This document shows positions 1 through 13,918 of a stretch of 13,918 bases of DNA, one piece after another. The stretch's first letter is position 1. The number at the start of each line of letters is the position of its first letter. The stretch comes from a virus (taxonomy: Duplodnaviria > Heunggongvirae > Uroviricota > Caudoviricetes). The position numbers were made by a program, and so were the translations under genes. The stretch is taken from the IMG/VR virus record IMGVR_UViG_2695420480_000007; one strand, 5' to 3'. Below the pieces are notes generated by a model. It searched no databases. It saw only the letters and a list, made by a program, of their open reading frames with translations, and was not told the origin of the DNA.

Positions 1-993
1 TTATGCTAGAGTTGAATATTCTCCATTTCCTCGGTCGGTGAGTGTTAATTCGCGGCCATTTTCTGTAAATGTAATGGCATCCAGCAGGCTTTTTCCTGTT
101 ACAGCTATACCATATCCAAGGTTATCAATCTTTGAACTGTCCTCAGATGATATTGGTATTTGTACAAGCATACCAACAACAAGGCCGTATTTGTTAATTA
201 TAGGGCCACCGCTATTCCCCCCCTTAACCCTAGCATTGAATAATAAAAAGTCTTGTGAATCTAAGTAAGAGTGACCAGAACCAACAATTCGCCCCTTTGA
301 CAGTCGGACAAACGAATTTATATGCGAAACGTCATATAACTTTAATGCATCAAATCCTGGAATGGGTGGAAATCCTATTGATAAAATTTCATCCAGTACC
401 GAGGCTTTGGTTGAGACCTTAAGTGGTTGAATATTATCTTCATTCGGAATGGTTGTGAAAACTAAAGCGATATCAATACGTTCATCGTTAGATACAAAGA
501 TTTTATGTATTGGTAAAGCCTCACCACCAGCTCTAAGTATCCTGATACTCTTCATGTCTTCAATAACATGTCTGGCTGTAAATATCGTGTGGTTATTCCC
601 AACAATAAAACTAGTACCAAGATCATGTGAACCATCACTTTTTTCAACAACAACAGGTAAAACGGAAGGACTAAGGCGGTCTATGATTGACTCAAATCCA
701 TCAGCTATAAAATCATACTTTCCATATTTCGCATCTGATTCATTGAAATTCGGTGCGAAATAGCAACGGTCAAAAAGAGTATGTCCTGAAGACAATTCCA
801 TTAAAATACCTTCAGTTGCTAGCTTTTCACAATTGCGTATTAACTTCATCATATCGAGAGTATTTTCCCACTCAGGTTTGAGACGGGTCAGGCTCTCAAT
901 TGTTTTTCTCTCTTTTACGTTATCGTTTTCCGGTTTGTCATAAAAATATTTCACTATTTCTGTTGGTGTTACATATGTTTTTTTTATAGTCAT
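1..993 (-). CDS. Trypsin-like (S1/chymotrypsin-fold) serine protease with an N-terminal domain of about 115 aa of unknown function
   Basis: Track ORF 1..1047(-) starts at a GTG with no SD; first in-frame ATG is at 993 (MTIKK...) with a weak GGG 7 nt upstream, so 993 is preferred and 1047 is the alternative. Ordered motifs TARHV (His), DIALV (Asp), GNSGGP (Ser) fit an S1 catalytic triad. Stop TAA at 1-3, so the gene is complete in the window. AT-rich. Confidence 0.7.
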   Translation of the reverse strand: MTIKKTYVTPTEIVKYFYDKPENDNVKERKTIESLTRLKPEWENTLDMMKLIRNCEKLATEGILMELSSGHTLFDRCYFAPNFNESDAKYGKYDFIADGFESIIDRLSPSVLPVVVEKSDGSHDLGTSFIVGNNHTIFTARHVIEDMKSIRILRAGGEALPIHKIFVSNDERIDIALVFTTIPNEDNIQPLKVSTKASVLDEILSIGFPPIPGFDALKLYDVSHINSFVRLSKGRIVGSGHSYLDSQDFLLFNARVKGGNSGGPIINKYGLVVGMLVQIPISSEDSSKIDNLGYGIAVTGKSLLDAITFTENGRELTLTDRGNGEYSTLA

Positions 994-1410
994 TTTTGTA
1001 CCCGCGATGACGTTATTCCATATATTTTTCTTTGTAGAAAATATCACTATTGCTGGTAAATGTTAAGTTCAGTGCTCGCACTAAAGCTGGATGATCAACG
1101 TCGCCCTCGTATGGAAATCAGGTAAGATTCATGTCTACTTGGGGTCTAGGGTAGACAGCATAAAAACGTACAATAGCGTTCGATTGGCTCTCACCCCCGC
1201 CTATAAACCATGAGGTTGATAGGGTAGTATCGTTAGGCAATAGTATACATGTAAGTATCCAACCTAATTGGTCTTGAGATTTCTAACTAACGTGTCGTTA
1301 TGTCCGCTTTTGGCACATAGCAGCCCCAGAGACAGTGGTGTAAAGTCATGGAGGGTCGGTGGGAGGATATTCAGTTTCATTCATGCCGAAATACGGTAAA
1401 ATCTATAATA

Positions 1411-1514
1411 GATGGAAATCATTCAATACTCGCACTATCGAAAGTCCACCATCCAGCCGCAGCAAGTTCTTGCATACGACGTGTCAGCGGGTTCAACTCC
1501 CGCCAGCTCCACCA
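1411..1514 (+). repeat. Copy 1 of a paralogous non-coding element of about 80 nt; its last 28 nt (1487..1514) match the tmRNA (ssrA) 3' end including a GGTTCAANTCC T-loop and CCA
   Basis: Ungapped alignment of 1411..1490 against 4081..4160 gives 68/80 identities. 1487..1514 = gcgggttcaactcccgccagctccacca, which I recall as the 3' terminus of E. coli tmRNA (from memory, not searched). Confidence 0.5.
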
Positions 1515-1639
1515 ATCATGATTGGACGGTGTAAGGACAACACCAACAAAAACAGGATGTTAGCAGTCTCAGCAGGACACCGACCAGACGGTGAGGAGAC
1601 AAAAAAGGATACGCAAAGGAGCCGCAGCTCCCGAGTGAT

Positions 1640-1669
1640 AAAAAAGCCCGCTTATGCGGGCTTTTTTTT
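1640..1669. terminator. Bidirectional intrinsic terminator
   Basis: aaaaaa-GCCCGC-ttat-GCGGGC-tttttttt: 6-bp GC stem, 4-nt loop, A-run 5' and T-run 3', so it reads as a terminator on both strands. It lies 10 bp past the Bro-N stop on the minus strand. Confidence 0.65.
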
Positions 1670-1678
1670 CCCTCAAGC

Positions 1679-2440
1679 TCACTGACGTGTTCTTGCCTCA
1701 ACTACTTTCTGGTATATAGCGATAGCTTCATCAACCAAAGCTAATGGATAGCAAGAATTTATATTCAATCCGGAGGGGCACTTAATTCTTTCTGCTCCAC
1801 GTTCACTACGCAATTTTTCACACCATTGCCAAAGCTCCTCAACCGAATAGGTATCCAAACCTAACTCCATCAATCGTTGAGGAACACTTCTGAACTGAGA
1901 CAAATCTCTTAAACTTTCTAACGAGTTAACTTTTAGTTCAACTTGGTTTACTCTACTTTCTAACTCTTCACGTTTTTCTATTTCCATTACCAATGCTTGA
2001 ACCGTCTGCTGCAGACTGTTAGCAAAAGCACTCAGTTCTGAACGTTCTTGCTTAGGTGGCGGAGGATATACACCAAATTCACGAATAGACGGAAGGACCT
2101 GATGAAAAAGCCAGCGTTGGAATTTTTTCCCCGCAGCAGTAGTATCCTGAGCAAGTACTCTATATAGACCTGGTTCAGTAAGAAATACCTCAGAGATAGT
2201 TTCACCATCCACGACAAGAGAAACATTCCTAAACTCATCTGGATCTAAAGTTTTTATTACCGCTCTTATTACAGTGAGCAAGCTTTGAGAAGTCTTTCCA
2301 TCCAGTTTTCTGTTCTCAGCAGAAAGCGTTCTTAGCACATCTGAAAGTGAAACAAAAATCTGCCCTTTTTCATTCATGCTACGGATATAATTTTCTCCAC
2401 ACTCTCCTTCGTAGCATAATTGTAACAAATTCTTTTGCAC
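1679..2440 (-). CDS. Bro-N domain protein (phage antirepressor-like) with coiled-coil middle and C-terminal domain
   Basis: 253-aa ORF. N-terminal region (…IFVSLSDVLRTL…EPGLYRVLAQDTTAAGKKFQRWLFHQVLPSIREFG) has the Bro-N pattern. GTG start at 2440 preceded by AAGGAGGGG with 7-nt spacing; the nearby ATG is out of frame. Confidence 0.65.
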   Translation of the reverse strand: MQKNLLQLCYEGECGENYIRSMNEKGQIFVSLSDVLRTLSAENRKLDGKTSQSLLTVIRAVIKTLDPDEFRNVSLVVDGETISEVFLTEPGLYRVLAQDTTAAGKKFQRWLFHQVLPSIREFGVYPPPPKQERSELSAFANSLQQTVQALVMEIEKREELESRVNQVELKVNSLESLRDLSQFRSVPQRLMELGLDTYSVEELWQWCEKLRSERGAERIKCPSGLNINSCYPLALVDEAIAIYQKVVEARTRQ

Positions 2441-2463
2441 GCCATCCCCTCCTTTTTTTATGG

Positions 2464-2491
2464 ATTATACATCCTATAAACATGTTGTCAC
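2464..2491 (-). promoter_or_regulatory. Putative sigma70 promoter for the Bro-N gene
   Basis: On the minus strand: -35 GTGACA (plus 2486..2491), 16-nt spacer, -10 TATAAT (plus 2464..2469), followed by the SD and GTG start. Confidence 0.4.
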
Positions 2492-2718
2492 CGAAAGGGA
2501 AAAGCATAAACCCAATTTATGTTCCACAAGATGTTCAAAAATCAAACAACCATATAGCTGAGGAGCACAAAAGAGCAAAAGTTTACCAACCCCATATATC
2601 CATACAGCACATAAAATTGACACTACATATGGTATTTTTTAAGTTACGCCTTGCACCATTTCATGATTTTATGTAGATTGTCATCACACGCTGAGATTAA
2701 AAAATTCTACAATTTTTG

Positions 2719-2747
2719 TTGATCTTGAGTTTGGTTTTTAGTATAAG
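2719..2747 (+). promoter_or_regulatory. Putative sigma70 promoter for the XRE/ImmA operon
   Basis: -35 TTGATC (2719..2724), 17-nt spacer, -10 TATAAG (2742..2747), then SD AGGAGG (2762..2767) and ATG at 2774. Confidence 0.45.
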
Positions 2748-2773
2748 TGAGCATGGATTGTAGGAGGCGCAAC

Positions 2774-3124
2774 ATGGTAACTAGCTTTGGTAAGACTCTC
2801 AGAAAAATGAGAATAGACCGGGGTATGGTGCTCAAAAATATGGCTGATCTGTTAGGCGTTAGTTCGGCTTACTTATCCGCCATTGAATTAGGCAAAAGAG
2901 CTATACCGGACTCATTAGTAAATACGATTGCAACAACTTTTGAGCTTAGCGGACAAGACATCATCAATCTCAAGAAACAGGCAGAGATTTCTCAACCGTC
3001 CATTAAGGTTGATATGTCGGATGCAAATGAGCAGAACAAAGAACTAATGCTTGTTTTTGCTCGTAAATTTAAGGACCTGAGTCCAGAGCAACTCGATAAG
3101 CTTAATAAAATGTTAAAGGACTGA
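2774..3124 (+). CDS. XRE-family (Cro/CI-type) helix-turn-helix transcriptional regulator
   Basis: Track ORF 2747..3124; the likely start is ATG 2774, 6 nt after a perfect AGGAGG. HTH signature FGKTLRKMRIDRGMVLKNMADLLGVSSAYLSAIELGKR. Confidence 0.8.
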   Translation: MVTSFGKTLRKMRIDRGMVLKNMADLLGVSSAYLSAIELGKRAIPDSLVNTIATTFELSGQDIINLKKQAEISQPSIKVDMSDANEQNKELMLVFARKFKDLSPEQLDKLNKMLKD

Positions 3125-3127
3125 ATA

Positions 3128-3661
3128 ATGATTGCGAAACGAGAACTTGGCCATCGCGTTTCACCTCTCAGCACCAGCATGATTAAATCATACGCTCATC
3201 GTCTGAGAGACGTTCTTCAGATATCAAATCACACATATCTGAGACTGGATGTATTACTAGAAGGTCTTATGGCCTCAGAAAGCATTGAGCTAGAAATTGT
3301 TGAAGATCATGAACTGCCCAAACGCTATGCAGTGACTTATCCAGATAAGAACAAAATTGTTTTACAGCGATCTGTTTACGATGCAGTGTGCAATGGTGAG
3401 AACCATGCGAGATTCACTGTTGCGCATGAACTTGGTCATTTAGTCATGCATCGCAATCAAAGTATCTATGCACGTAATAAGACTAGTGGAGGGCATAAAA
3501 TCTATGAAGACAGCGAATGGCAAGCAGATGTTTTTGCAAGCCACTTCTTAATTGACTCAAGACTAGTTTTGCCCACAATGACTGTTGAAGATATAAGCAA
3601 AACATTTGGTGTCAGTCAACAAGCGGCTGAAACTTGGATGAGAAAAAATGCAAAAAGATAA
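3128..3661 (+). CDS. ImmA/IrrE-family (COG2856-like) zinc metallopeptidase
   Basis: 177-aa ORF starting 4 nt after the XRE stop (operonic). HEXXH motif in FTVAHELGHLVMH with downstream SEWQADVFASHFL, typical of ImmA/IrrE anti-repressor proteases. Confidence 0.8.
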   Translation: MIAKRELGHRVSPLSTSMIKSYAHRLRDVLQISNHTYLRLDVLLEGLMASESIELEIVEDHELPKRYAVTYPDKNKIVLQRSVYDAVCNGENHARFTVAHELGHLVMHRNQSIYARNKTSGGHKIYEDSEWQADVFASHFLIDSRLVLPTMTVEDISKTFGVSQQAAETWMRKNAKR

Positions 3662-3668
3662 CGAAAAA

Positions 3669-3691
3669 GCCAGCGAACCGCTGTCGCTGGC
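3669..3691 (+). other. Hairpin just after the ImmA stop; possible weak terminator or protein-binding palindrome
   Basis: GCCAGCG-aaccgctgt-CGCTGGC: 7-bp stem, 9-nt loop, but no clear T-run after it. Confidence 0.3.
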
Positions 3692-3786
3692 TTCTCCTAT
3701 CGTAAGCAAATACGAAAAACTTGGCGGTTGTGAGTATACGCTTACCTTAGGTTTTGTCAACAGCGAAACTTTACAGGTAACACGAT

Positions 3787-3930
3787 ATGACCATTGAAAA
3801 AGCTGTATCTGAGGAATACATCACAATTTACCGTCCTTTTATTACGGTCAAAGGTAAACGGATCTTTGCTCGTCAAAAAGGCTTGGCAGCCTTTCCTATC
3901 AAAATTCCTGCCTCTAAGTATCGAGGATAA
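3787..3930 (+). CDS. Small hypothetical basic protein (47 aa), possible micro-gene
   Basis: ATG directly after an in-frame stop (3778..3780); weak AGGT 9 nt upstream; followed by a terminator hairpin. Below the ORF-track length cutoff. No recognisable domain. Confidence 0.25.
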   Translation: MTIEKAVSEEYITIYRPFITVKGKRIFARQKGLAAFPIKIPASKYRG

Positions 3931-3944
3931 TCTTTGCTAATCTT

Positions 3945-3970
3945 AGGCCCTTTTCTAGGGCCTTTTATTA
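3945..3970 (+). terminator. Intrinsic terminator-like hairpin
   Basis: AGGCCC-ttttcta-GGGCCT followed by TTTTATT. Confidence 0.4.
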
Positions 3971-4079
3971 CACTTCTGTTACGCGCACCACAGATAGAGT
4001 TTCAGCTAAAACTTTTGTTCATACCTAGGAGTCTGCTGACGAGTGGTTTGTTCACTAATAAACACGTAAAAACGGTAAC

Positions 4080-4165
4080 GGCTGGACATCATTCAATATT
4101 CGCACTATTGGAAGTTCACCAGCCAGCCACAGCACGTTCTTGCATACAACGTGCCTGCGGTTTTT
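4080..4165 (+). repeat. Copy 2 of the paralogous element of about 80 nt
   Basis: 85% ungapped identity to 1411..1490. Flanking stem GGCTGG (4080..4085) / CCAGCC (4119..4124) corresponds to GATGG/CCATC in copy 1, which is one compensatory A-T to C-G change. Confidence 0.5.
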
Positions 4166-4255
4166 GAGACCGGTCCGATCATCAAACGAAACATAAAATT
4201 AGCTCACACTATGAGGAAAAGTATCTTTTTTTACTATGTAAATTCAAAGGATTAG

Positions 4256-5125
<870 letters not shown>

Positions 5126-5147
5126 GTCTTTAAGTGATAAGCATAAA

Positions 5148-5186
5148 CCGCAGCACGATCTTCTTGCATACGACGTGCTACGGTTT
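5148..5186 (+). repeat. Copy 3 (shortened) of the paralogous element, between the GIY-YIG stop and the invertase stop
   Basis: ccgcagcacgatcttcttgcatacgacgtgctacggttt aligns with the core of copies 1 and 2. It contains a potential 6-bp stem AGCACG/CGTGCT. A mirrored copy lies at 8275..8313 inside the inverted duplication. Confidence 0.45.
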
Positions 5187-5740
5187 CATTTATCTCCGAC
5201 CGGAAACTTCTTATACAGTGTCGATATACCAACATCATAGATGATCGCCACCTTCTGGCGAGGAACGCCTGATGCAATTAATCGCCCGGCCTGCGCCCAT
5301 TGTTCTGGTGTAAGTTTGGGACGACGTCCCCCAATTCGTCCCTGTGCGCGAGCAGCTTCCAGTCCAGCTTTTGTTCGTTCAACAATCAGTTCTCGTTCCA
5401 TTTCAGCCAAGGCACCCATCACATGAAAGAAAAAACGCCCCATCGGTGTGCTGGTATCAATAGCATCCGTCAGGCTGCGAAAATTAACGCCACGTTCGCG
5501 CAACTCCTCAACCAGAATGACCAGATGCCGCATACTACGCCCCAGCCGATCCAGCTTCCAGACAACCAGAGTGTCACCTGCCGATAATGTCCTGAGCAGT
5601 TTTTTCAGTCCCGGCCTTTCGGACTTTGTACCGCTTATCTTGTCTTCAAAAATAAGCTCGCATCCTGCACAGTTCAGCGCATTACGTTGTAGATCTGTGT
5701 TCTGGTCATTTGTTGATACGCGTACATAGCCAATAAGCAT
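5186..5740 (-). CDS. Serine recombinase, DNA invertase of the Pin/Gin/Hin/Cin (Din) family, copy 1
   Basis: Track ORF 5186..5776; the likely start is the internal Met giving MLIGYVRVSTNDQ… (184 aa, the Din-invertase length), with catalytic-Ser region YVRVST and a C-terminal HTH. 100% identical to copy 2. Confidence 0.85.
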   Translation of the reverse strand: MLIGYVRVSTNDQNTDLQRNALNCAGCELIFEDKISGTKSERPGLKKLLRTLSAGDTLVVWKLDRLGRSMRHLVILVEELRERGVNFRSLTDAIDTSTPMGRFFFHVMGALAEMERELIVERTKAGLEAARAQGRIGGRRPKLTPEQWAQAGRLIASGVPRQKVAIIYDVGISTLYKKFPVGDK

Positions 5741-5794
5741 GGTAGATCCCCCTGACAAAAGCAGGAATGATGCCATTTGCTCGTTATTTCTGCA

Positions 5795-5820
5795 TTTTCA
5801 TAAATGTTGGTTTGGGAGAA
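5795..5820. other. 26-bp Din-invertase crossover site (hix/gix-like), site 1
   Basis: TTTTCATAAATG-TT-GGTTTGGGAGAA; the inner half-site is the reverse complement of TTCTCCCAAACC. Exact inverted copy of site 2; the duplication boundary falls at its central dinucleotide. Confidence 0.5.
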
Positions 5821-6288
5821 GGTTCGGCATTACCCGTTGGTGTGCCTGTTCCGTGGCCTTCCGCCACTCCGCCAACAGGCTGGCTGAAATGCAACGGCGC
5901 GGCTTTCTCTGCTGAAGAATACCCGGAACTGGCAAAGGCTTATCCAACAAATAAATTACCTGATTTACGCGGTGAGTTTATTCGTGGCTGGGATGACGGG
6001 CGCGGTATTGATGCAGGACGTGTTTTATTGAGTATTCAGGCCGGAATGCTGGAAAAGCACCGTCATCCTGTTGTCGCCAACGATGGGTATGACTCAAAAG
6101 AGGAATGGGAACTGGCGACAATCTTCAGAAGAGCATATACGCAAGGCAGGGGGCTTGATGCTGCCGCTGCCGGAGGGAGTCTGATCCCATCACCGACACT
6201 TCATTCACGAGGGAGTATCGGTAATACTGGCGGGAGTGAAACCCGTCCACGAAATATTGCATTTAACTTTATCGTGAGGGCTGCATAA
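5809..6288 (+). CDS. Silent tail-fibre C-terminal variable cassette (Sv'), start-less in the current orientation
   Basis: Track ORF 5767..6288; its first 18 aa are read-through across the crossover site. The cassette (…GWLKCNGAAFSAEEYPELAKAYP…LPDLRGEFIRGWDDGRGID…) resembles Mu/P1/e14-type fibre C-terminal domains. Its stop overlaps the tfa' start (TAATG). Confidence 0.6.
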   Translation, partial: GLGEGSALPVGVPVPWPSATPPTGWLKCNGAAFSAEEYPELAKAYPTNKLPDLRGEFIRGWDDGRGIDAGRVLLSIQAGMLEKHRHPVVANDGYDSKEEWELATIFRRAYTQGRGLDAAAAGGSLIPSPTLHSRGSIGNTGGSETRPRNIAFNFIVRAA

Positions 6289-6890
6289 TGGATAACGCCG
6301 TATTAAATAGCGAGCTTATTGCCACGAAGGCGGGGAATATTACCGTCTATAACTATGATGGTGAAACTCGGGAATATATGTCTACTTCAAATGAATATCT
6401 TGCCATTGGTGTCGGTATCCCTGCATATTCCTGTTTAGATGCCCCTGGCACACATAAGGCGGGTTATGCTATCTGCCGTTCGATTGATTTAAACTCATGG
6501 GAATATGTGCCAGACCATCGCGGTGAAATCGTCTATAACACCGAAACGAGAGACGCCAAAGAAATCACAGCTCCGGGTGATTATCCTGAAAATACAACCA
6601 CTATCGCCCCGTTAACGCCATACGATAAATGGGATGGTAAGAAATGGGTGACCGATACTGAGGCACAGCATAGCGCCGCAGTAGAAGCGGCAGAAGCACA
6701 GCGCCAGTTGCTGATTGATGCTGCTATGGCTTCCATCAGTCTGATTCAGCTGAAATTGCAGGCCGGGCGGAAGCTGACGCAGGCAGAAATCACCCGCCTT
6801 AACGCTGTACTGGATTACATTGACGCGGTGACGGCAACAAATACCAGCACAGCGCCGGATGTCATCTGGCCTGAATTGCCGGAGGCGTAG
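6288..6890 (+). CDS. Tail fibre assembly protein (Tfa', 200 aa; U'-like)
   Basis: 200-aa ORF translationally coupled to Sv'; Tfa-like composition and C-terminus. Converges on and overlaps the opposite-strand tfa by 29 nt, as in Mu G and e14 P segments. Confidence 0.75.
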   Translation: MDNAVLNSELIATKAGNITVYNYDGETREYMSTSNEYLAIGVGIPAYSCLDAPGTHKAGYAICRSIDLNSWEYVPDHRGEIVYNTETRDAKEITAPGDYPENTTTIAPLTPYDKWDGKKWVTDTEAQHSAAVEAAEAQRQLLIDAAMASISLIQLKLQAGRKLTQAEITRLNAVLDYIDAVTATNTSTAPDVIWPELPEA

Positions 6891-7293
6891 GCCATTCAAT
6901 ATCTGGATCACTGGAGGTATCAATCAGTTCCAGTGCGTCCAGATAATCCAGCCACAGATTATATTGCGCCAGTTCCTCGCCTTTCAGACGACCAATAGCG
7001 GCTTTACCGGGCCATTGCTTACTGTTCATGTATTCGTTGGCCTGATTAACTAATCGCTGTTTATTTGATTCAGCGATTGTGATTAATTCTTCGCTGGTAA
7101 GTGGTGGCGCATCCTGCCATATTGGAAAACCATTTTTATCTGAACCAAGTATTTTACCATCAGGCCATGCAACTCCTGCGAACTCAGAATAAATAGTAAA
7201 GTTTATTTTCGTAGCGTTCTCAGGAATGGTTTGGCTATCTGGTGAAATATAAAACCCCGAATCAGAGGGATTAAAATAATATGTCTTTTCCAT
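6862..7293 (-). CDS. Tail fibre assembly protein (Tfa, 143 aa; U-like), copy A
   Basis: 143-aa ORF, identical to 8700..9131. ATG 2 nt after the stop of the upstream Sv cassette. Confidence 0.75.
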   Translation of the reverse strand: MEKTYYFNPSDSGFYISPDSQTIPENATKINFTIYSEFAGVAWPDGKILGSDKNGFPIWQDAPPLTSEELITIAESNKQRLVNQANEYMNSKQWPGKAAIGRLKGEELAQYNLWLDYLDALELIDTSSDPDIEWPTPPAIQAR

Positions 7294-7295
7294 AG

Positions 7296-7653
7296 TTAAT
7301 ACCCCACAGCCATCCAGTAAATTGAATTTGTTGTAGCAGAAGTGTAAGTAAATCTGATTTTAGTTCTGTTGGTACTTCCAATATCAAAGCCCACAGAACG
7401 GGCAGAAGGATCATTAGTTGAAATAAGAGCATTTACCGAACGACAAGCCGCAGGGAAAGCTACAGGTAATGTTATATCAACTGTTCCAACACTTCCTCCG
7501 GTTGGTGAGACAGAAAAACTCCCCCATTGAATAATCATCCCCCCAGGTAATTTCTGGTATCCATTGGCGGTCAATGAGTTACCAAAGCTGTTCATATCCG
7601 GTACCTGATTTTCTCCTGTCCCCACATTCCTTTTTGCTGCTTCTCCCAAACCA
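7296..7653 (-). CDS. Tail-fibre variable cassette Sv, duplicate copy not fused to a constant region (silent)
   Basis: Track ORF 7296..7694; identical to the C-terminal 118 aa of the stf gene at 9134..9781. Here the sequence upstream of the site is the invertase leader, not the fibre constant region. Confidence 0.6.
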
Positions 7654-7666
7654 ACATTTATGAAAA
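7641..7666. other. 26-bp Din-invertase crossover site, site 2
   Basis: TTCTCCCAAACC-AA-CATTTATGAAAA. The left half plus central AA (7641..7654) is identical to site 3 (9479..9492); the right half is identical to the outer half of site 1. Confidence 0.5.
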
Positions 7667-7720
7667 TGCAGAAATAACGAGCAAATGGCATCATTCCTGC
7701 TTTTGTCAGGGGGATCTACC

Positions 7721-8275
7721 ATGCTTATTGGCTATGTACGCGTATCAACAAATGACCAGAACACAGATCTACAACGTAATGCGCTGAACTGTGCAGGATG
7801 CGAGCTTATTTTTGAAGACAAGATAAGCGGTACAAAGTCCGAAAGGCCGGGACTGAAAAAACTGCTCAGGACATTATCGGCAGGTGACACTCTGGTTGTC
7901 TGGAAGCTGGATCGGCTGGGGCGTAGTATGCGGCATCTGGTCATTCTGGTTGAGGAGTTGCGCGAACGTGGCGTTAATTTTCGCAGCCTGACGGATGCTA
8001 TTGATACCAGCACACCGATGGGGCGTTTTTTCTTTCATGTGATGGGTGCCTTGGCTGAAATGGAACGAGAACTGATTGTTGAACGAACAAAAGCTGGACT
8101 GGAAGCTGCTCGCGCACAGGGACGAATTGGGGGACGTCGTCCCAAACTTACACCAGAACAATGGGCGCAGGCCGGGCGATTAATTGCATCAGGCGTTCCT
8201 CGCCAGAAGGTGGCGATCATCTATGATGTTGGTATATCGACACTGTATAAGAAGTTTCCGGTCGGAGATAAATGA
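7721..8275 (+). CDS. Serine recombinase, DNA invertase of the Pin/Gin/Hin/Cin family, copy 2
   Basis: Track ORF 7685..8275; ATG 7721 preceded by AGGGGG 8 nt upstream. Identical to copy 1 in inverted orientation. Confidence 0.85.
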   Translation: MLIGYVRVSTNDQNTDLQRNALNCAGCELIFEDKISGTKSERPGLKKLLRTLSAGDTLVVWKLDRLGRSMRHLVILVEELRERGVNFRSLTDAIDTSTPMGRFFFHVMGALAEMERELIVERTKAGLEAARAQGRIGGRRPKLTPEQWAQAGRLIASGVPRQKVAIIYDVGISTLYKKFPVGDK

Positions 8276-8313
8276 AACCGTAGCACGTCGTATGCAAGAA
8301 GATCGTGCTGCGG
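8275..8313 (-). repeat. Inverted copy of element copy 3
   Basis: Reverse complement of 5148..5186, lying within the 985-bp inverted duplication. Confidence 0.45.
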
Positions 8314-8335
8314 TTTATGCTTATCACTTAAAGAC

Positions 8336-8625
8336 TCAAAAATCAGGTGAGTAACGGACCGGGGACATAGCTCCTTTTTTTCTTAATTCATCTGGTATTT
8401 TTTTTCCAAGATAAAGATTTGCTATTTCAGGTGGGGCTTCTCGACCTTCAAAACCATAGCGAGAACTTTGTGTTGCCTCAAAGTCCGGATCCTCGTCCCA
8501 GTATTTCATCGTAGGGAAATTTTCACGTGTTGATTTGAGCCATTTATCAGCAATGAAAACCCCTCGAACGATCCCCCTTACAGTAGCAAGAATGACTTCT
8601 GCTTGGCTGGCGCGAGAGACATTAA
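8336..8625 (-). pseudogene. 3' fragment of the GIY-YIG gene (codons 180..274), inverted duplicate
   Basis: Reverse complement of 4836..5125, exact. Track ORF 8336..8761 is a chimera of this with antisense tfa sequence. Confidence 0.7.
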
Positions 8626-8728
8626 AATCACCCGCCTTAACGCTGTACTGGATTACATTGACGCGGTGACGGCAACAAATACCAGCACAGCGCCGGATGT
8701 CATCTGGCCTGAATTGCCGGAGGCGTAG
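8625..8728 (+). pseudogene. 3' fragment of tfa' (direct duplicate of 6787..6890)
   Basis: Identical to the end of the 200-aa tfa' gene but lacks its 5' 500 bp; begins at the non-site junction at 8625. Confidence 0.6.
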
Positions 8729-9131
8729 GCCATTCAATATCTGGATCACTGGAGGTATCAATCAGTTCCAGTGCGTCCAGATAATCCAGCCACAGATTAT
8801 ATTGCGCCAGTTCCTCGCCTTTCAGACGACCAATAGCGGCTTTACCGGGCCATTGCTTACTGTTCATGTATTCGTTGGCCTGATTAACTAATCGCTGTTT
8901 ATTTGATTCAGCGATTGTGATTAATTCTTCGCTGGTAAGTGGTGGCGCATCCTGCCATATTGGAAAACCATTTTTATCTGAACCAAGTATTTTACCATCA
9001 GGCCATGCAACTCCTGCGAACTCAGAATAAATAGTAAAGTTTATTTTCGTAGCGTTCTCAGGAATGGTTTGGCTATCTGGTGAAATATAAAACCCCGAAT
9101 CAGAGGGATTAAAATAATATGTCTTTTCCAT
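8700..9131 (-). CDS. Tail fibre assembly protein (Tfa, 143 aa), copy B, cognate to the expressed fibre
   Basis: Identical to 6862..7293; directly downstream of the stf gene. Confidence 0.8.
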
Positions 9132-9133
9132 AG

Positions 9134-9781
9134 TTAATACCCCACAGCCATCCAGTAAATTGAATTTGTTGTAGCAGAAGTGTAAGTAAATCTGATTTTA
9201 GTTCTGTTGGTACTTCCAATATCAAAGCCCACAGAACGGGCAGAAGGATCATTAGTTGAAATAAGAGCATTTACCGAACGACAAGCCGCAGGGAAAGCTA
9301 CAGGTAATGTTATATCAACTGTTCCAACACTTCCTCCGGTTGGTGAGACAGAAAAACTCCCCCATTGAATAATCATCCCCCCAGGTAATTTCTGGTATCC
9401 ATTGGCGGTCAATGAGTTACCAAAGCTGTTCATATCCGGTACCTGATTTTCTCCTGTCCCCACATTCCTTTTTGCTGCTTCTCCCAAACCAAGGTTTTCG
9501 AGAGCCGTTTTCACCGTGCCATCCGATTTGATATCGCCAAACGGATTCTTGCGGCTTAACAGCAGCGCGCGAAGTGCGGTAAGTAACTGGTCGTGCCGCC
9601 CCTTCTCCAGGCTGGCACCGGATGCCTCCACCACACTGCAAAGTTCCTCCTGCAACATGTCAAAGTAGTCATCATCCAGATCGGTGGCAGGCGTGCCGGT
9701 CTGGGGGTTACCACGGGTAAAACCGTTCTTACCCGCGCCGAACTTATCCTTCTGCGCGGTTTTCGTGTCTATACGATGCAT
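9134..9781 (-). CDS. Side tail fibre protein (about 97-aa constant N-terminal region fused to the Sv variable region), 215 aa
   Basis: ATG at 9781 with GGAG 7 nt upstream. N-terminus [21 protein letters not shown]… looks like a short e14/Mu-type fibre constant part; the constant/variable junction (…ENLGLGE|AAKRN…) coincides with crossover site 3. Confidence 0.75.
9479..9504. other. 26-bp Din-invertase crossover site inside the stf gene (best palindrome), site 3
   Basis: TTCTCCCAAACC-AA-GGTTTTCGAGAG, close to hixL as I recall it (TTCTTGAAAACC-AA-GGTTTTTGATAA, from memory). Sits at the fibre constant/variable boundary. Confidence 0.6.
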
Positions 9782-9784
9782 GGA

Positions 9785-9916
9785 TTACTCCGGATAACCG
9801 GGGTTTTCACCCGGTGCCGACCGCGCACGGCGCATCACCAGCCGACGGGCATCACGCATATGACGCTGACCAATCGTGACAAACGCCCGCCGGACACGGG
9901 CGCGGTTAAAGCGCAT
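9785..9916 (-). CDS. Small Arg-rich hypothetical protein (43 aa), possible late-operon remnant
   Basis: ATG overlaps the end of the upstream reading frame; stop is 3 nt before the stf ATG. Not in the ORF track (short). Confidence 0.25.
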   Translation of the reverse strand: MRFNRARVRRAFVTIGQRHMRDARRLVMRRARSAPGENPGYPE

Positions 9917-9935
9917 CTCCGCGGGCTGCTGAAAA

Positions 9936-10235
9936 TCAACGTGCAAAAAGGAAGTCGCCATTGCTGCCTCCGTGACTCTGCGTAAATTCGCCCAGTTCCG
10001 TACACTCCAGCAGCAGAAAGCGCCGCGCCCCGTTCAGATCGCGCTGACGTTTCACCCGGTACACACTGTCACCGCAGACCACCTCATAATCAGCGGTGAT
10101 CCCCCGGCGGTAGCGAATGGTGATGTAATGGGTGATGGCGTCCCCGGTCTGCGCGGTTTCCTGCCAGGTGGTGGCACTGGTCTGGATAACCTTCGCCCAT
10201 GTCCGGAACGTAACCGGGTACCCTGGCGACGCGCC
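9936..10235 (-). pseudogene. 5'-truncated phage head-tail joining/adaptor-like gene fragment
   Basis: A frame with no start codon reads …VTFRTWAKVIQTSATTWQETAQTGDAITHYITIRYRRGITADYEVVCGDSVYRVKRQRDLNGARRFLLLECTELGEF…, resembling the head-tail joining family pattern. GC-rich (about 60%). Confidence 0.4.
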
Positions 10236-10453
10236 TTACGCGTTAACCAGCCTTCTGCTTCCAGCCGTGCGATAGCCGTTCTGACGGTACTCATCCCCGC
10301 GCCAATCTGACGGGCAATGGTTTCAATTGATGGCCAGCACACACCTTCGTCATTACTGAAATCAGCCAGGCGGGCCATAATTGCCACGCTGGATAATTTC
10401 ATGCCTGACGCTGCGCAACCATCCCATACATAGCCGGTTAATTTAGTGCTCAT
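10052..10453 (-). pseudogene. Chimeric ORF: authentic N-terminal HTH domain (about 77 aa) of a phage replication/regulatory protein, then out-of-frame read-through
   Basis: [13 protein letters not shown]…SIETIARQIGAGMSTVRTAIARLEAEGWLTRKARRQG is a clean winged-HTH N-terminus. After RQG (about 10220..10228) the frame reads low-complexity Pro/Arg/Gly text while another frame carries the head-tail joining fragment. Confidence 0.5.
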
Positions 10454-10664
10454 GACCGACCTCTATTTCCCTGAATTTACGACGAAACTGTTCGAGCGGG
10501 CTGAAGCACTCATGCTCATAGCCTTCACGGAGGTAGATAACCCGTTGTGTTTCCGGCTCCCAACGAATGACTCTGACGGGCACTCCGTAGTGATCTTTGA
10601 ACCAGCGATTAACTTGTCGCAAAGGACTGTCTCCTTCTGCCGGTTGAAATCCCCCACAGCCCAC
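10443..10664 (-). CDS. Small hypothetical protein (73 aa)
   Basis: GTG start; its stop overlaps the start of the downstream HTH gene by 11 nt (operonic). No domain recognised with confidence. Confidence 0.4.
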
Positions 10665-10764
10665 TCTGCAAAGCTGTGGGTTACAATTTCCCTGTCGGGG
10701 ACCTTGAAAACGTCAATATCACTCACTGGGCAGTAATGCCAAAAGCACCGGAGGCTGGAGCATA

Positions 10765-11070
10765 ATGACCACTTTTACCGACAAAGAACTGATTAAAGAA
10801 ATTAAAGAGCGTATCAGCAGCCTTGACGTGCGAGACGATATTGAGCGCCGTGCTTATGAAATCGCACTCCTATCTCTGGAAGTAGAACCAGATGAACGCG
10901 AAGCTTATGAATTATTCATGGAAAAGCGTTTTGGTGACTTAGTAGATCGTCGGAGAGCAAAAAACGGCGATAACGAATACATGGCATGGGATATGACTCT
11001 CGGTTGGATCGTCTGGCAGCAACGAGCTGGTATCCATTTCTCAACAATGTCACAGCAAGAGGTGAAATAA
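10765..11070 (+). CDS. Hypothetical early-region protein (101 aa)
   Basis: ATG 10765 with GGAG 4 nt upstream; stop TAA shares its A with the xis ATG (TAATG), indicating translational coupling. Confidence 0.55.
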
Positions 11071-11420
11071 TGGAGCCATACAGCCTCACACTCGATGAGG
11101 CCTGTCATTTTCTCAAGATATCCAGACCGACTGCCATTAACTGGATACGCACAGGGCGTCTTCAGGCAACACGCAAAGATCCCACTAAGAATAAATCTCC
11201 TTACCTCACAACACGACAAGCCTGCATTGCGGCTCTTCAGTCTCCGCTGCATACTGTCCAGGTGAGCGCGGGTGATGGCATAACAGAGGAAAGAAAATGT
11301 CACTCTTCCGCAGAGGTGAAATATGGTACGCCAGTTTCACATTGCCGAACGGTAAAAGATTTAAACAGTCTCTTGGAACAAAGGACAAAAGGCAGGCGAC
11401 AGAACTCCATGACAAGCTAA
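11070..11420 (+). CDS. xis: Excisionase (Xis), P22-like, 116 aa
   Basis: Internal start of track ORF 10986..11420; ATG 11070 preceded by GAGGTG. DNA-binding motif [26 protein letters not shown]. Overlaps int by 124 nt in another frame. Confidence 0.65.
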
Positions 11421-12460
11421 AGGCTGAAGCATGGCGGGTCAGCAAACTTGGTGAAATACCTGATATAACGTTCGAGGAAGCGTGTGTCAGGTGGCTTGAA
11501 GAGAAAGCACATAAAAAATCACTGGACGATGACAAAAGCCGGATCGGATTCTGGCTTCAACATTTCGCAGGAATGCAACTAAGAGACATTACTGAATCAA
11601 AAATTTATTCAGCAATGCAGAAAATGACGAACCGGCGTCATGAGGAAAACTGGAAACTCAGGGCAGAAGCATGCAGAAAAAAAGGGAAACCTGTTCCAGA
11701 ATACACGCCAAAACCAGCGTCCGTTGCAACGAAGGCTACGCATCTTTCATTTATAAAGGCCCTACTAAGAGCCGCAGAGCGTGAATGGAAAATGCTGGAT
11801 AAGGCACCAATTATTAAAGTGCCTCAACCAAAGAATAAACGGATCCGCTGGCTGGAGCCCCATGAAGCACAAAGGCTGATTGATGAATGTCCGGAGCCAT
11901 TAAAGTCTGTTGTTGAATTTGCACTGGCAACAGGCTTAAGACGCTCGAACATCATCAACCTTGAATGGCAACAAATAGATATGCAGCGCCGGGTGGCATG
12001 GATAAACCCGGAAGAGAGTAAATCAAACCGCGCAATTGGCGTTGCGCTGAATGATACTGCATGTCGCGTATTGAAAAAACAAATCGGGAATCATCACCGT
12101 TGGGTATTTGTGTACAAGGAAAGCTGTACCAAACCAGACGGAACGAAAGCGCCAACAGTAAGGAAGATGCGGTATGACGCAAACACAGCCTGGAAAGCGG
12201 CGCTGAGACGGGCTGGTATTGATGATTTCAGATTTCACGACTTGAGACACACCTGGGCAAGTTGGCTGGTTCAAGCCGGAGTCCCGTTGTCAGTGTTACA
12301 GGAAATGGGAGGCTGGGAGTCTATCGAAATGGTTCGTCGATATGCTCACCTTGCACCTAATCACCTTACCGAACACGCACGGCAAATAGACTCGATCCTG
12401 AACCCATCGGTCCCAAATTTGTCCCAGTCAAAAAATAAGGAAGGTACTAATGATGTGTAA
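11297..12460 (+). CDS. int: Tyrosine site-specific integrase, P22/thrW-targeting family
   Basis: 387-aa ORF with SD GAGGA. N-terminus [47 protein letters not shown] matches my recollection of P22 Int; C-terminal catalytic region has R…HDLRHT…Y. Ends 14 bp from the thrW 3' end. Confidence 0.9.
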
Positions 12461-12474
12461 CTTATTGATTTAAA

Positions 12475-12550
12475 TGGTGCCGATAATAGGAGTCGAACCT
12501 ACGACCTTCGCATTACGAATGCGCTGCTCTACCAACTGAGCTATATCGGC
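12475..12550 (-). tRNA. thrW: tRNA-Thr (anticodon CGU)
   Basis: Reverse complement gives a 76-nt tRNA: GCCGATATAGCTCAGTTGGTAGAGCAGCGCATTCGTAATGCG…GGTTCGACTCC…CACCA, with anticodon loop tTCGTaa, T-loop and encoded CCA. Adjacent to proA as in E. coli/Salmonella. Confidence 0.9.
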
Positions 12551-12664: not shown

Positions 12665-13918
12665 TTACGCACGAATGGTGTAATCACCAATGCCGATCCA
12701 CTTGTAAGTGGTCAGTGCTTCCAGCCCCATTGGGCCACGCGCGTGGAGTTTTTGTGTGCTTACCGCCACTTCCGCACCCAGACCAAACTGGCCGCCGTCG
12801 GTAAAACGCGTAGAGGCGTTAACGTAAACAGCGGACGAATCCACTTCGTTAACAAAACGCTGGGCGTTGCGCATATCGCGGGTCAGGATCGCATCGGAGT
12901 GTTGTGTGCCGTGTTCACGAATATGGGCGATGGCATCGTCAAGATCGCTGACGATTTTGACGTTCAAATCTAATGACAGAAACTCATCGTCATACTCTTC
13001 GGCTTTAACAGCAACCACCTTCGCAGGGCCTGCCTGCAACTGCGCCAGTGCAGCTGCATCTGCGTGTAATGTCACGCCGCTTTCCGCCATTTGTTTGCTT
13101 AATGCGGGCAGGAAGCTATCGGCGATGTTTTTATTCACCAGCAACGTTTCAACCGTATTACATGTGCTCGGACGCTGAGTTTTCGCGTTGACGATCACTT
13201 TTAATGCTTCAGCGATCTCTACACTTTCATCAACGTAAATATGGCATACGCCTATACCACCTGTGATCACCGGGATTGTCGACTGTTCACGGCACAGTTT
13301 ATGCAAACCAGCGCCACCACGCGGGATCAGCATGTCGATGTATTTATCCATACGCAGCATTTCACTGACCAGCGCACGGTCAGGATTATCAATCGCCTGC
13401 ACGGCACCCGCCGGTAAGCCGCAGGATTTCAGGGCGTCCTGAATCACCGCCACCGTTGCAGCGTTAGTGCGACACGTTTCTTTGCCACCGCGCAGGATCA
13501 CCGCATTACCGGTTTTCAGGCACAGCGAAGCGACATCAACCGTCACGTTCGGGCGCGCTTCATAAATCACGCCAATAACCCCCAGCGGTACGCGACGACG
13601 CTCAAGACGCAGGCCGCTGTCCAGTACGCCGCCATCGATTACCTGCCCCACCGGATCGGCGAGGTTGCACACCTGACGTACATCGTCGGCAATGCCTTTC
13701 AGCCGTGCGGGCGTCAGTGCCAGACGGTCAAGCATCGCTTCGCTAAGGCCATTGGCTCGCGCGTCAGCAACATCCTGGGCGTTAGCGTTGAGGATGATTT
13801 CGCTTTGTGCTTCCAGTTCATCGGCGATTTTTTCCAGCACGCGATTTTTTTCGCGGCTGGAGAGTTGCGCTAATTTATACGAGGCTTGCTTCGCGGCAAT
13901 GCCCATTTGTTCCAGCAT
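12665..13918 (-). CDS. proA: Gamma-glutamyl phosphate reductase (glutamate-5-semialdehyde dehydrogenase)
   Basis: 417-aa ORF matching E. coli ProA as I recall it ([21 protein letters not shown]…); the start codon is the last three bases of the window. Confidence 0.95.

Follow-up and report, generated by a model that had tools for sequence, protein, structure and literature searches.

Chimeric open reading frame and its parental genes

The DNA stretch analysed in this study (IMG/VR virus record IMGVR_UViG_2695420480_000007, Caudoviricetes; 13,918 nucleotides (nt), in the following referred to as the window) contains what is very probably a decayed prophage. Within it, an open reading frame (ORF) of 133 amino acids on the minus strand combines the beginning of a phage replication initiator gene (rep) with an out-of-frame part of a head-closure gene. 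The junction between both genes is designated J1; its position and the coordinates of the neighbouring features are compiled in Table 1.

Residues 1–78 of the ORF are identical to gp41 of Shigella phage SfIV, a protein of 313 amino acids that is described as 'primosomal protein' or O-like replication initiator. An HTH_36 domain (Pfam) was identified at residues 23–70 (E=1e-11), and residues 1–81 matched PHROG 11896 (E=1e-50) and PHROG 391, but only over the first ~80 positions of these profiles, which are 225–298 positions long. Another frame of the minus strand is open from 9939 to 10235 (99 codons without a start codon; stop at 9936–9938). Residues 6–99 of its translation are identical at 92 of 94 positions to residues 43–136 of the head closure protein (136 amino acids) of an intact Escherichia coli prophage. 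This frame also matched PF05521 (Phage_HCP, E=2.4e-15, profile positions 31–105 of 106) and PHROG 25 'head closure Hc1' (E=2e-30). In the SfV record the corresponding orf7 (L008, 6014–6310) is annotated with 98 amino acids, whereas the same head-closure gene encodes 136 amino acids in SfIV and in E. coli prophages; the short form is probably due to a start-site or frameshift issue of the old SfV record.

Comparison by blastn placed the switch between both parents at 10215–10220. The region from 9793 to 10220 is 98.8% identical to positions 12113–12540 of the L1PEag1 prophage and 97.9% identical to SfV (orf7–orf8 region of SfI/SfV), and the region from 10215 to 10696 is 99.8% identical to SfIV 30681–30200, which comprises gp41 and the gene upstream of it. 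The only bases exactly shared by both parents at J1 are TA at 10219–10220. In the intact relatives the Hc1 gene is located on the same strand as rep, 15.3 kb downstream of it in the order of SfIV and ~14 kb downstream in L1PEag1.

The original prediction, made from the letters of the window alone, had considered about 77 residues of the ORF as authentic, had placed the switch at about 10225 and had proposed a startless alternative frame of about 99 amino acids. Alignment of both frames to intact homologues located the breakpoint at 10219/10220, that is within 5 nt, and the end of the authentic part at residue 78, within one codon; the 99 codons were confirmed. The labels given at that time need refinement, as the 'HTH gene' (helix-turn-helix) is the part of the replication initiator gene that codes for the N-terminal DNA-binding domain and the 'head-tail adaptor' is the head-closure (Hc1) protein. 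The view that early and morphogenesis genes were joined by deletion in a decayed prophage is well founded, because the two halves are >98% identical to collinear genes on the same strand about 15 kb apart.

It appears extremely improbable that the ORF represents a genuine small HTH protein of full length, with a merely spurious similarity in the other frame. The ORF possesses a start codon and a significant HTH_36 match, and its translation is annotated in GenBank as 'phage O protein family' (CTR17744.1). However, its residues 79–133 match nothing, while the other frame of the same DNA codes for an almost perfect part of the head closure protein. At the DNA level both halves are 98–99.8% identical to separate genes that are 15 kb apart in intact phages, and the exact protein of 133 amino acids is known from only two cluster members. 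Both blastn and protein alignments refute the reading as a genuine full-length protein.

These comparisons strongly suggest that the region is a deletion scar without a working gene across it, situated in a decayed SfV/SfIV/e14-like prophage. During formation of J1, nt 235 of rep was joined to codon 43 of the head-closure gene, and the remainder of rep with the origin iterons, the nin region, Q, and the lysis, terminase, portal, protease, capsid and adaptor genes were lost. Nucleotides 236–942 of rep are deleted, including the iterons (~nt 300–445), and the C-terminal domain is absent from the fragment in the window. The Hc1 fragment is likewise incomplete; its first 42 of 136 codons including the start codon are missing, and it is not in frame with the upstream ORF.

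The ORF of 133 amino acids is a pseudogene of the same kind as ymfN of E. coli K-12. The chimeric region probably has no function, because rep lacks its iterons and its C-terminal domain, Hc1 is startless, the adjacent Neck1 gene is a stub and the promoter region (cI/cro) was removed by a second deletion (J4). At most, the product would be a DNA-binding domain of 78 residues with a nonsense tail of 55 residues. A promoter scan revealed no convincing promoter for the chimeric ORF; one 9/12 match at 10742–10715 is within chance expectation. A programmed frameshift or a functional fusion was also considered and rejected, as the arrangement occurs in one lineage only, the partner fragment lacks its N-terminus, and sister fusions at the same rep position are found in all three frames.

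Occurrence of the junctions in other assemblies

Beside J1, two further deletion junctions (J2 and J4) were identified. Identical 60-mers across J1, J2 and J4 occur together in the NCBI draft genome, in an IMG/VR contig and in four contigs that Logan assembled from other sequencing runs. Since all three junctions recur together in independent assemblies, they are not assembly artefacts. A chimera generated during assembly is hardly conceivable for J1, even though the same contig contains, at a distance of 1.5 kb, a probable mis-assembly in the form of an 1838-bp inverted/direct duplication around pin. The three 60-mers were found in the assemblies of other runs and in the IMG/VR contig that lacks the pin duplication, and the parents of J1 share only 2 bp, which is far too short for a de Bruijn mis-join.

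J1 is real and restricted to a single small lineage, in which all three deletions are present. The exact protein of 133 amino acids is represented by two NCBI entries and several Logan assemblies, and J1 was detected in none of 5426 complete E. coli genomes. The exact J1 43-mer was also absent from the one-genome-per-species GTDB contigs, a collection that presumably contains one E. coli-type genome per species.

A recurrent breakpoint in the replication initiator gene

The break in rep is located at CGCCAGGGT/AACCGC (nt 234/235; the slash marks the break), and the same nucleotide is broken in dozens of other prophage remnants. Four sequenced structures share this single breakpoint (...CGCCAGGGT(A)/) and show four different continuations. 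These are Hc1 in the window, the region upstream of the tail-fibre gene in strain G4/9 (prophage at argW), the last 84 bp of ymfQ in strain PCP06173 (prophage at icd) and the large terminase gene in ymfN of the K-12 prophage e14.

When the chimeric ORF was used in a protein search, the best 120 clusters had the first ~78 residues in common, mostly with 95–100% identity. Divergence points were counted on 126 clusters, 120 of which came from this search. Among the matches listed, the sequence departs from rep exactly after G78 in 64 of 126 clusters, after N79 in 12 and after R80 in 16 (all RusA fusions), and only ~10 of these 126 clusters diverge elsewhere into foreign sequence. According to tblastn, the tails derive from genes for PerC, Dam, RusA, KilA-N, DUF968, Q, lysozyme, small terminase, protease, capsid and sheath, and furthermore from tape measure, DNA-circulation, baseplate (baseplate J) and tail-fibre genes and from an IS3 transposase gene. 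Nearly all of them are encoded on the rep strand and downstream of rep, which corresponds to deletions of 0.5 to 26 kb.

The partners joined at rep nt 234/235 amount to at least 40 unique native contexts, which range from RusA to tail-fibre genes. Pattern scans of IMG/VR and metagenome contigs raised the number of distinct partners observed in the DNA following CGCCAGGGTA/ to 16. The mirror pattern (not-G, followed by TAACCGCAATG...) revealed five different leftward deletions (X/AACCGC), which keep rep from nt 234/235 on; one of them is the junction of yfdO in the K-12 prophage CPS-53. Strain K-12 therefore has both halves of the rep gene in two cryptic prophages, each broken at the same nucleotide. 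The hot-spot part of this rep allele is present in 2002 of the 5426 complete E. coli genomes (~37%), and it is intact in 1579. These observations clearly show that the phosphodiester between T234 and A235 of rep is a recurrent, two-sided and nucleotide-precise hot spot. It is likely that J1 arose by the same process.

A minor second cluster of foreign fusions was observed at rep residues 95–97, just before the iterons (rep of SfIV, L007 30443–31384). No description of the shared breakpoint was found in the literature, although Mehta, Casjens and Krishnaswamy may have mentioned it in their e14 analysis of 2004.

The scar had originally been taken as support for the view that selection maintains the tail-fibre shufflon in an otherwise decaying prophage. 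This does not follow from J1. The position of the break is set by a mutational hot spot that was used in dozens of unrelated deletions, and not by the value of the retained parts. Selective maintenance of shufflon modules is nevertheless plausible, but only from work on e14, in which inversion of a tail-fibre segment by Pin-family recombinases (PinQ) leads to a protein that blocks adsorption of phage T2 (PMC12529663).

Partner sites and position of the crossover

In the 40 unique partner sites, for which the native sequence was taken from the reference phages, T is present at position −1 in 88% and A at position +1 in 95%. At least one apparent exception from T/A vanishes with a better-matched reference (L032). 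In comparison to all 4628 TA dinucleotides in the same phages, the partner sites are enriched in G or C at −4 (p=3e-5), G at −3 (p=9e-4), C or T at +2 (p=0.01), C at +3 (p=1e-5), G at +5 (p=5e-3) and C at +6 (p=0.02). The enriched bases are those of the rep site itself on both sides (GG.T/A.CCGC). Wherever the flanks are informative, base −2 of the product always derives from rep and base +2 always from the partner, which confines the exchange to TA. The junctions at the hot spot are clean.

J1 taken alone could represent a one-off microhomology-mediated deletion, caused by replication slippage or end joining, whose position in rep is a coincidence. Its short microhomology (TA within CGGNTA) is typical of such deletions, and J4 (GTC) as well as the 11PC junction (TTC) has the appearance of a generic event. 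However, at least 40 partners are joined at this same phosphodiester, which was used from both sides. Although the resemblance between partner sites and rep site extends over both flanks, the crossover stays in TA, unlike in slippage or single-strand annealing. Slippage requires homology only behind the switch, and patchy annealing shifts the switch, so that neither predicts a fixed TA crossover with resemblance on two flanks. A coincidence is thus highly improbable.

Two junctions of the inversion type were also detected at the hot spot in metagenome/Logan contigs. In contig L017 (10234 onward) the rep fragment is joined to an inverted block from baseplate to sheath. Contig L018 (6299/6300 and 10234/10235) contains a yfdT-like T/A, one side of which is joined to the rep fragment and the other to an unrelated ORF of 347 amino acids; this pattern suggests serial events at TA sites.

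Four of ~7 mapped junctions that do not involve rep are also located on (G)(G/A)TA, namely J2 of the window, two junctions in strain 18AR0366 and beeE::jayE of K-12. The other common rep allele (SfV orf39/L1PEag1) likewise possesses GGT/AAC at the equivalent Gly-Asn. In a control search with this allele the truncation points were scattered and none occurred at the equivalent GGT/AAC; the hot-spot effect therefore depends on more than the hexamer. In the control allele (L006 26267–27085) four different foreign tails start at residues 85–86 (..NIYLL/ and ..IYLLH/), which may constitute a separate, weaker hot spot.

Possible mechanisms

As a tentative explanation, the TA at rep nt 234/235 (CCAGGGT/AACCGC) may be the preferred substrate of a putative break-and-join activity. 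Candidate agents would be recombinases and topoisomerase-like enzymes, or else a nuclease of the phage or the host in combination with ligation. Such an activity would recombine the hot spot with similar sites (consensus ~S-G-N-T/A-Y-C-S-G-C) anywhere in the prophage and would thereby produce two-way deletions and inversions. We think that an enzyme-like break-and-join process centred on TA is more likely than plain replication slippage. Among all explanations considered it ranks first, before a process associated with the replication origin; a Pin quasi-site and a coincidence follow far behind.

Somewhat less likely, though possible, is a process at the edge of the phage origin, in which replication leads to breakage or template switching and homology-guided rejoining follows. 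This could happen, for example, during abortive in-situ initiation in a prophage that is unable to excise, and survivors would be enriched since the deletions remove killing functions. Such a process is possible because the break lies ~65 nt upstream of the start of the origin iterons (CCGTCAAAATCTGAC repeats) and 10 nt upstream of an iteron-like sequence. The ymfN junction of K-12, which has 6–7 bp of homology on the left side ending exactly at T234, also fits to this explanation, as does the variant P0040, in which one nucleotide is missing exactly at the hot spot (GGTACC instead of GGTAACC). Fork collapse and annealing can hardly account for the two-sided precision to a single nucleotide, the near-universal T/A, the enrichment in the discarded flank of the partner, and the products of the inversion type.

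A third explanation, that the hot spot is a quasi-site of a serine invertase of the Pin/Gin family (PinE, PinQ and PinR are common in E. coli), is very unlikely. A palindromic core of 2 bp (TA), which permits deletions as well as inversions, would be expected for a serine recombinase, and pin is present in cis in the prophage of the window and in e14. However, the pix sites of the window (TTCTCCCAAACC AA GGTTT) match the hot spot in only 4 of 12 positions of the left flank and in none of the right, and their core is AA instead of TA. The hot spot does not correspond to a 26-bp crossover site of a serine invertase (Pin/Gin/Hin), which consists of TTnTCnnAAACC half-sites around a 2-bp core. Furthermore, the outer positions read by invertases are not conserved among the partner sites, and invertases strongly disfavour deletion.

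Other known sites were compared by eye, and neither a Pin quasi-site nor XerCD/dif, integron, IS608 TTAC, IS5 YTAR, RuvC/RusA or gyrase consensus sites fitted the position of the crossover together with the flanks. A similarity to cos was rejected as well, since the genome ends of SfV and SfIV are unrelated to the hot-spot site.

Several caveats apply to the hot spot. A hairpin or cruciform was not found at the hot spot (folding z-scores −0.8 to +0.2), SfIV contains no inverted copy of either hot-spot flank as would be expected for transposon ends, and no recombinase site was found at the hot spot. An intact reciprocal pair of inversion junctions was not detected; contig L017 ends too early, and the sequence of L018 differs at this position. 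The ymfN junction of K-12, with its homology of 6–7 bp (CCAGG(G)T), has G instead of A at +1; a strict TA-core model thus does not cover all events. With regard to the counts, the protein search appears biased towards short proteins, as full-length rep is missing from its list, and it covers events from codon 78 on. The clusters are not all independent events, so that their numbers overstate the frequency, and the count of 40 unique partner contexts is more reliable. The native partner sequences are proxies from three reference phages and not the true parents. Many clusters originate from short-read Logan assemblies; yet K-12 and other closed genomes share the breakpoint. These caveats concern the claim of a hot spot, and nothing was found that speaks against a deletion scar.

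Comparison with known systems

The closest described object is YmfN of the K-12 prophage e14 (in RefSeq 'chimeric replication protein/phage terminase', divided into the pseudogenes oweE and aaaE; oweE::aaaE). It contains the same rep allele as the window (3 of the first 234 nt differ) and the same breakpoint at nt 234/235. The upstream neighbours are also the same (ymfL and ymfM/DUF4222), and in both cases the part for the N-terminal domain of rep was fused by deletion to the 3' part of a late gene. In contrast to the ORF in the window, the partner in ymfN is the large terminase gene, which is joined in frame and results in a protein of 455 amino acids, whereas the head-closure partner in the window is out of frame. 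Moreover, the homology at the e14 junction comprises 6–7 bp without the shared A, and e14 is integrated at icd with IntE and not at thrW.

YfdO of the K-12 prophage CPS-53 (KpLE1) represents the complementary half. It belongs to the same rep allele and starts at the same nucleotide (...ctcatcat/AACCGCAATG), which means that the hot spot works in both directions. Unlike in the window, the C-terminal part of rep was kept, the N-terminal domain, cI and cro were lost, and the prophage is located at argW.

Short-homology-dependent illegitimate recombination in E. coli, for example during formation of lambda bio transducing phages, also occurs at hot spots, which are pairs of sites with 8–13 bp of contiguous homology. 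The junctions described here resemble them in that they recur at set sites with few shared bases. They differ from them in that one rep site is combined with many partners, in that only T/A and interrupted flank matches are shared, and in the fixed crossover.

SfIV, SfII, SfV, SfI and the thrW prophage of L1PEag1 are intact relatives, which have the same integrase and excisionase and the same attachment site thrW beside proA (PMC3636060). SfIV and SfII carry the same rep allele as the window; SfV, SfI and L1PEag1 carry the same Hc1 and Neck1 genes. The intact relatives retain the ~31 kb that are lost in the window, and the Shigella phages possess gtr genes in the position of the cargo.

Neighbouring junctions and remainder of the prophage

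The window is 99.99% identical to CXZE01000004.1, a contig of the E. coli draft assembly GCA_001277415.1. The tRNA-Thr gene thrW, the only Rfam match, is the attachment site of P22 and of Shigella serotype-converting phages (PMC3636060). The integrase and excisionase genes beside it are both of the P22/SfV type. SfIV, SfV and an apparently intact 42-kb prophage at thrW of E. coli L1PEag1 served as references for mapping, and the region from 9430 to 11600 consists of four collinear blocks on the same strand (A to D, Table 1). Most probably, an SfV/SfIV/e14-like temperate phage with lambdoid early genes, an HK97-type head and a Mu-type tail integrated at thrW and later lost ~31 kb by three internal deletions (J1, J2 and J4).

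Table 1. Coordinates of the features discussed in the text (positions in the window).
Feature	Position	Strand	Remarks
Tail-fibre gene (constant and one variable part)	9134..9781	−	After J2; PF21882
Block A	9430–9796		Start of tail-fibre gene and 15 bp upstream
J2 crossover (GATA)	9793..9796		Truncated Neck1 joined to 15 bp upstream of tail-fibre gene
Block B	9793–10220		Hc1 codons 43–136 and Neck1 codons 1–56
5' part of tail-completion/Neck1 gene (codons 1–56 of 168)	9793..9961	−	PHROG 879, E=1e-27, residues 1–56/168
3' part of head-closure gene (Hc1, PF05521), codons 43–136 and stop	9936..10220	−	No start codon; frame differs from rep fragment
Chimeric ORF, 133 amino acids	10052..10453	−	Codons 1–78 replication initiator; codons 79–133 head-closure gene out of frame
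Block C	10215–10696		rep nt 1–235, DUF4222 ORF, part of ymfM-frame ORF
J1 crossover	10219..10220		TA in both parents (rep T234/A235); flanks CGGgTA/CGGtTA match imperfectly
Authentic 5' part of rep (nt 1–235, N-terminal winged-helix DNA-binding domain)	10219..10453	−	SfIV 30443–30677, 99.8%
Rest of early block with rep fragment	10443..10696	−	DUF4222 ORF (10443–10664) intact; overlapping ymfM-frame ORF without its first 35 codons
J4 crossover (GTC)	10694..10696		Early-right block joined to 3' end of early-left gene
Block D	10694 onward		orf28-like gene, excisionase, integrase
Retained prophage end	10765..12460	+	orf28-like gene (10765–11070), P22/SfV-type excisionase (10986–11420), integrase (11297–12460)
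tRNA-Thr (thrW), attachment site	12475..12550	−	Only Rfam match
proA	12665–13918	−	Beyond thrW, at window end

J2 and J4 are each located within 500 bp of J1, one on either side. In SfIV coordinates the gap at J1 amounts to 15.3 kb and extends from the rest of rep to the head-tail adaptor. The gap at J2 comprises ~10.3–10.8 kb (10.3 kb in SfIV coordinates) from the rest of Neck1 to the baseplate, that is the tail and baseplate genes, and that at J4 comprises 5.2 kb (SfIV coordinates) with the early-left genes, cI, cro and ymfL. The ORF of the Neck1 stub (9785–9961) closes with two foreign codons. J4 creates a chimeric ORF of 87 amino acids (10463–10726, minus strand), in which the ymfM homologue receives a new N-terminus; ymfM of K-12 e14 has been described as an SOS-inducible inhibitor of cell division (bioRxiv 10.1101/2020.11.19.390815).

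Strain G4/9 and the IMG/VR contig L033 have rep joined to the very T/A upstream of the tail-fibre gene that was used in J2. The junction of G4/9 could also have descended from the structure in the window if the 428-bp Hc1/Neck1 block, which lies between CCGGATA and CCGGGTA, had been lost. This is possible, but it is no longer needed as an explanation in view of the hot spot and the reuse of this T/A.

At the other end of the window (1–5125), where Shigella phages have their gtr O-antigen genes, the element carries a different cargo, which codes for a serine protease (S1), a BRO-N protein, an HTH/ImmA pair and a GIY-YIG protein that is LEM-3-like. This cargo has the tail-fibre/pin module on one side and the far end of the prophage on the other. 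A repeat of ~98 nt with 82% identity (1396–1493 and 4066–4163), of which a third copy of 28 nt is present at 5150–5177, lies in this cargo region among the protease, GIY-YIG and pin genes and has no Rfam match.

Two identical pin genes are located in a perfect inverted repeat of 986 bp (4836–5821; block 7655–9492), in addition to a second copy of 6787–7654. The IMG/VR contig L030 (12080 bp), which is 100% identical elsewhere, lacks exactly the 1838-bp block 7655–9492 and shows a normal arrangement with a single pin. The additional block reads as the flipped state of the invertible segment spliced in, and the Logan contigs also break at the pix site. It is probably a mis-assembly that resulted from active Pin inversion in the sequenced culture.

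Significance for prophage decay

J1 alone is an ordinary scar, which documents the extent of prophage decay, and for annotators it means that the 'phage O protein family' protein CTR17744.1 is encoded by a pseudogene. Domestication of prophages is usually regarded as random deletion combined with selective filtering. Here, one nucleotide position of rep accounts for most rearrangements of this gene across E. coli, and the partner sites carry a recognisable signature. If an enzyme is indeed responsible, it would represent a new factor that determines prophage inactivation and mosaic joints. A single explanation would then also be available for two long-known pseudogenes of K-12, ymfN and yfdO, and for the defects of e14 and CPS-53, and E. 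coli would have a specific and recurrent route to disarm a very common prophage family.

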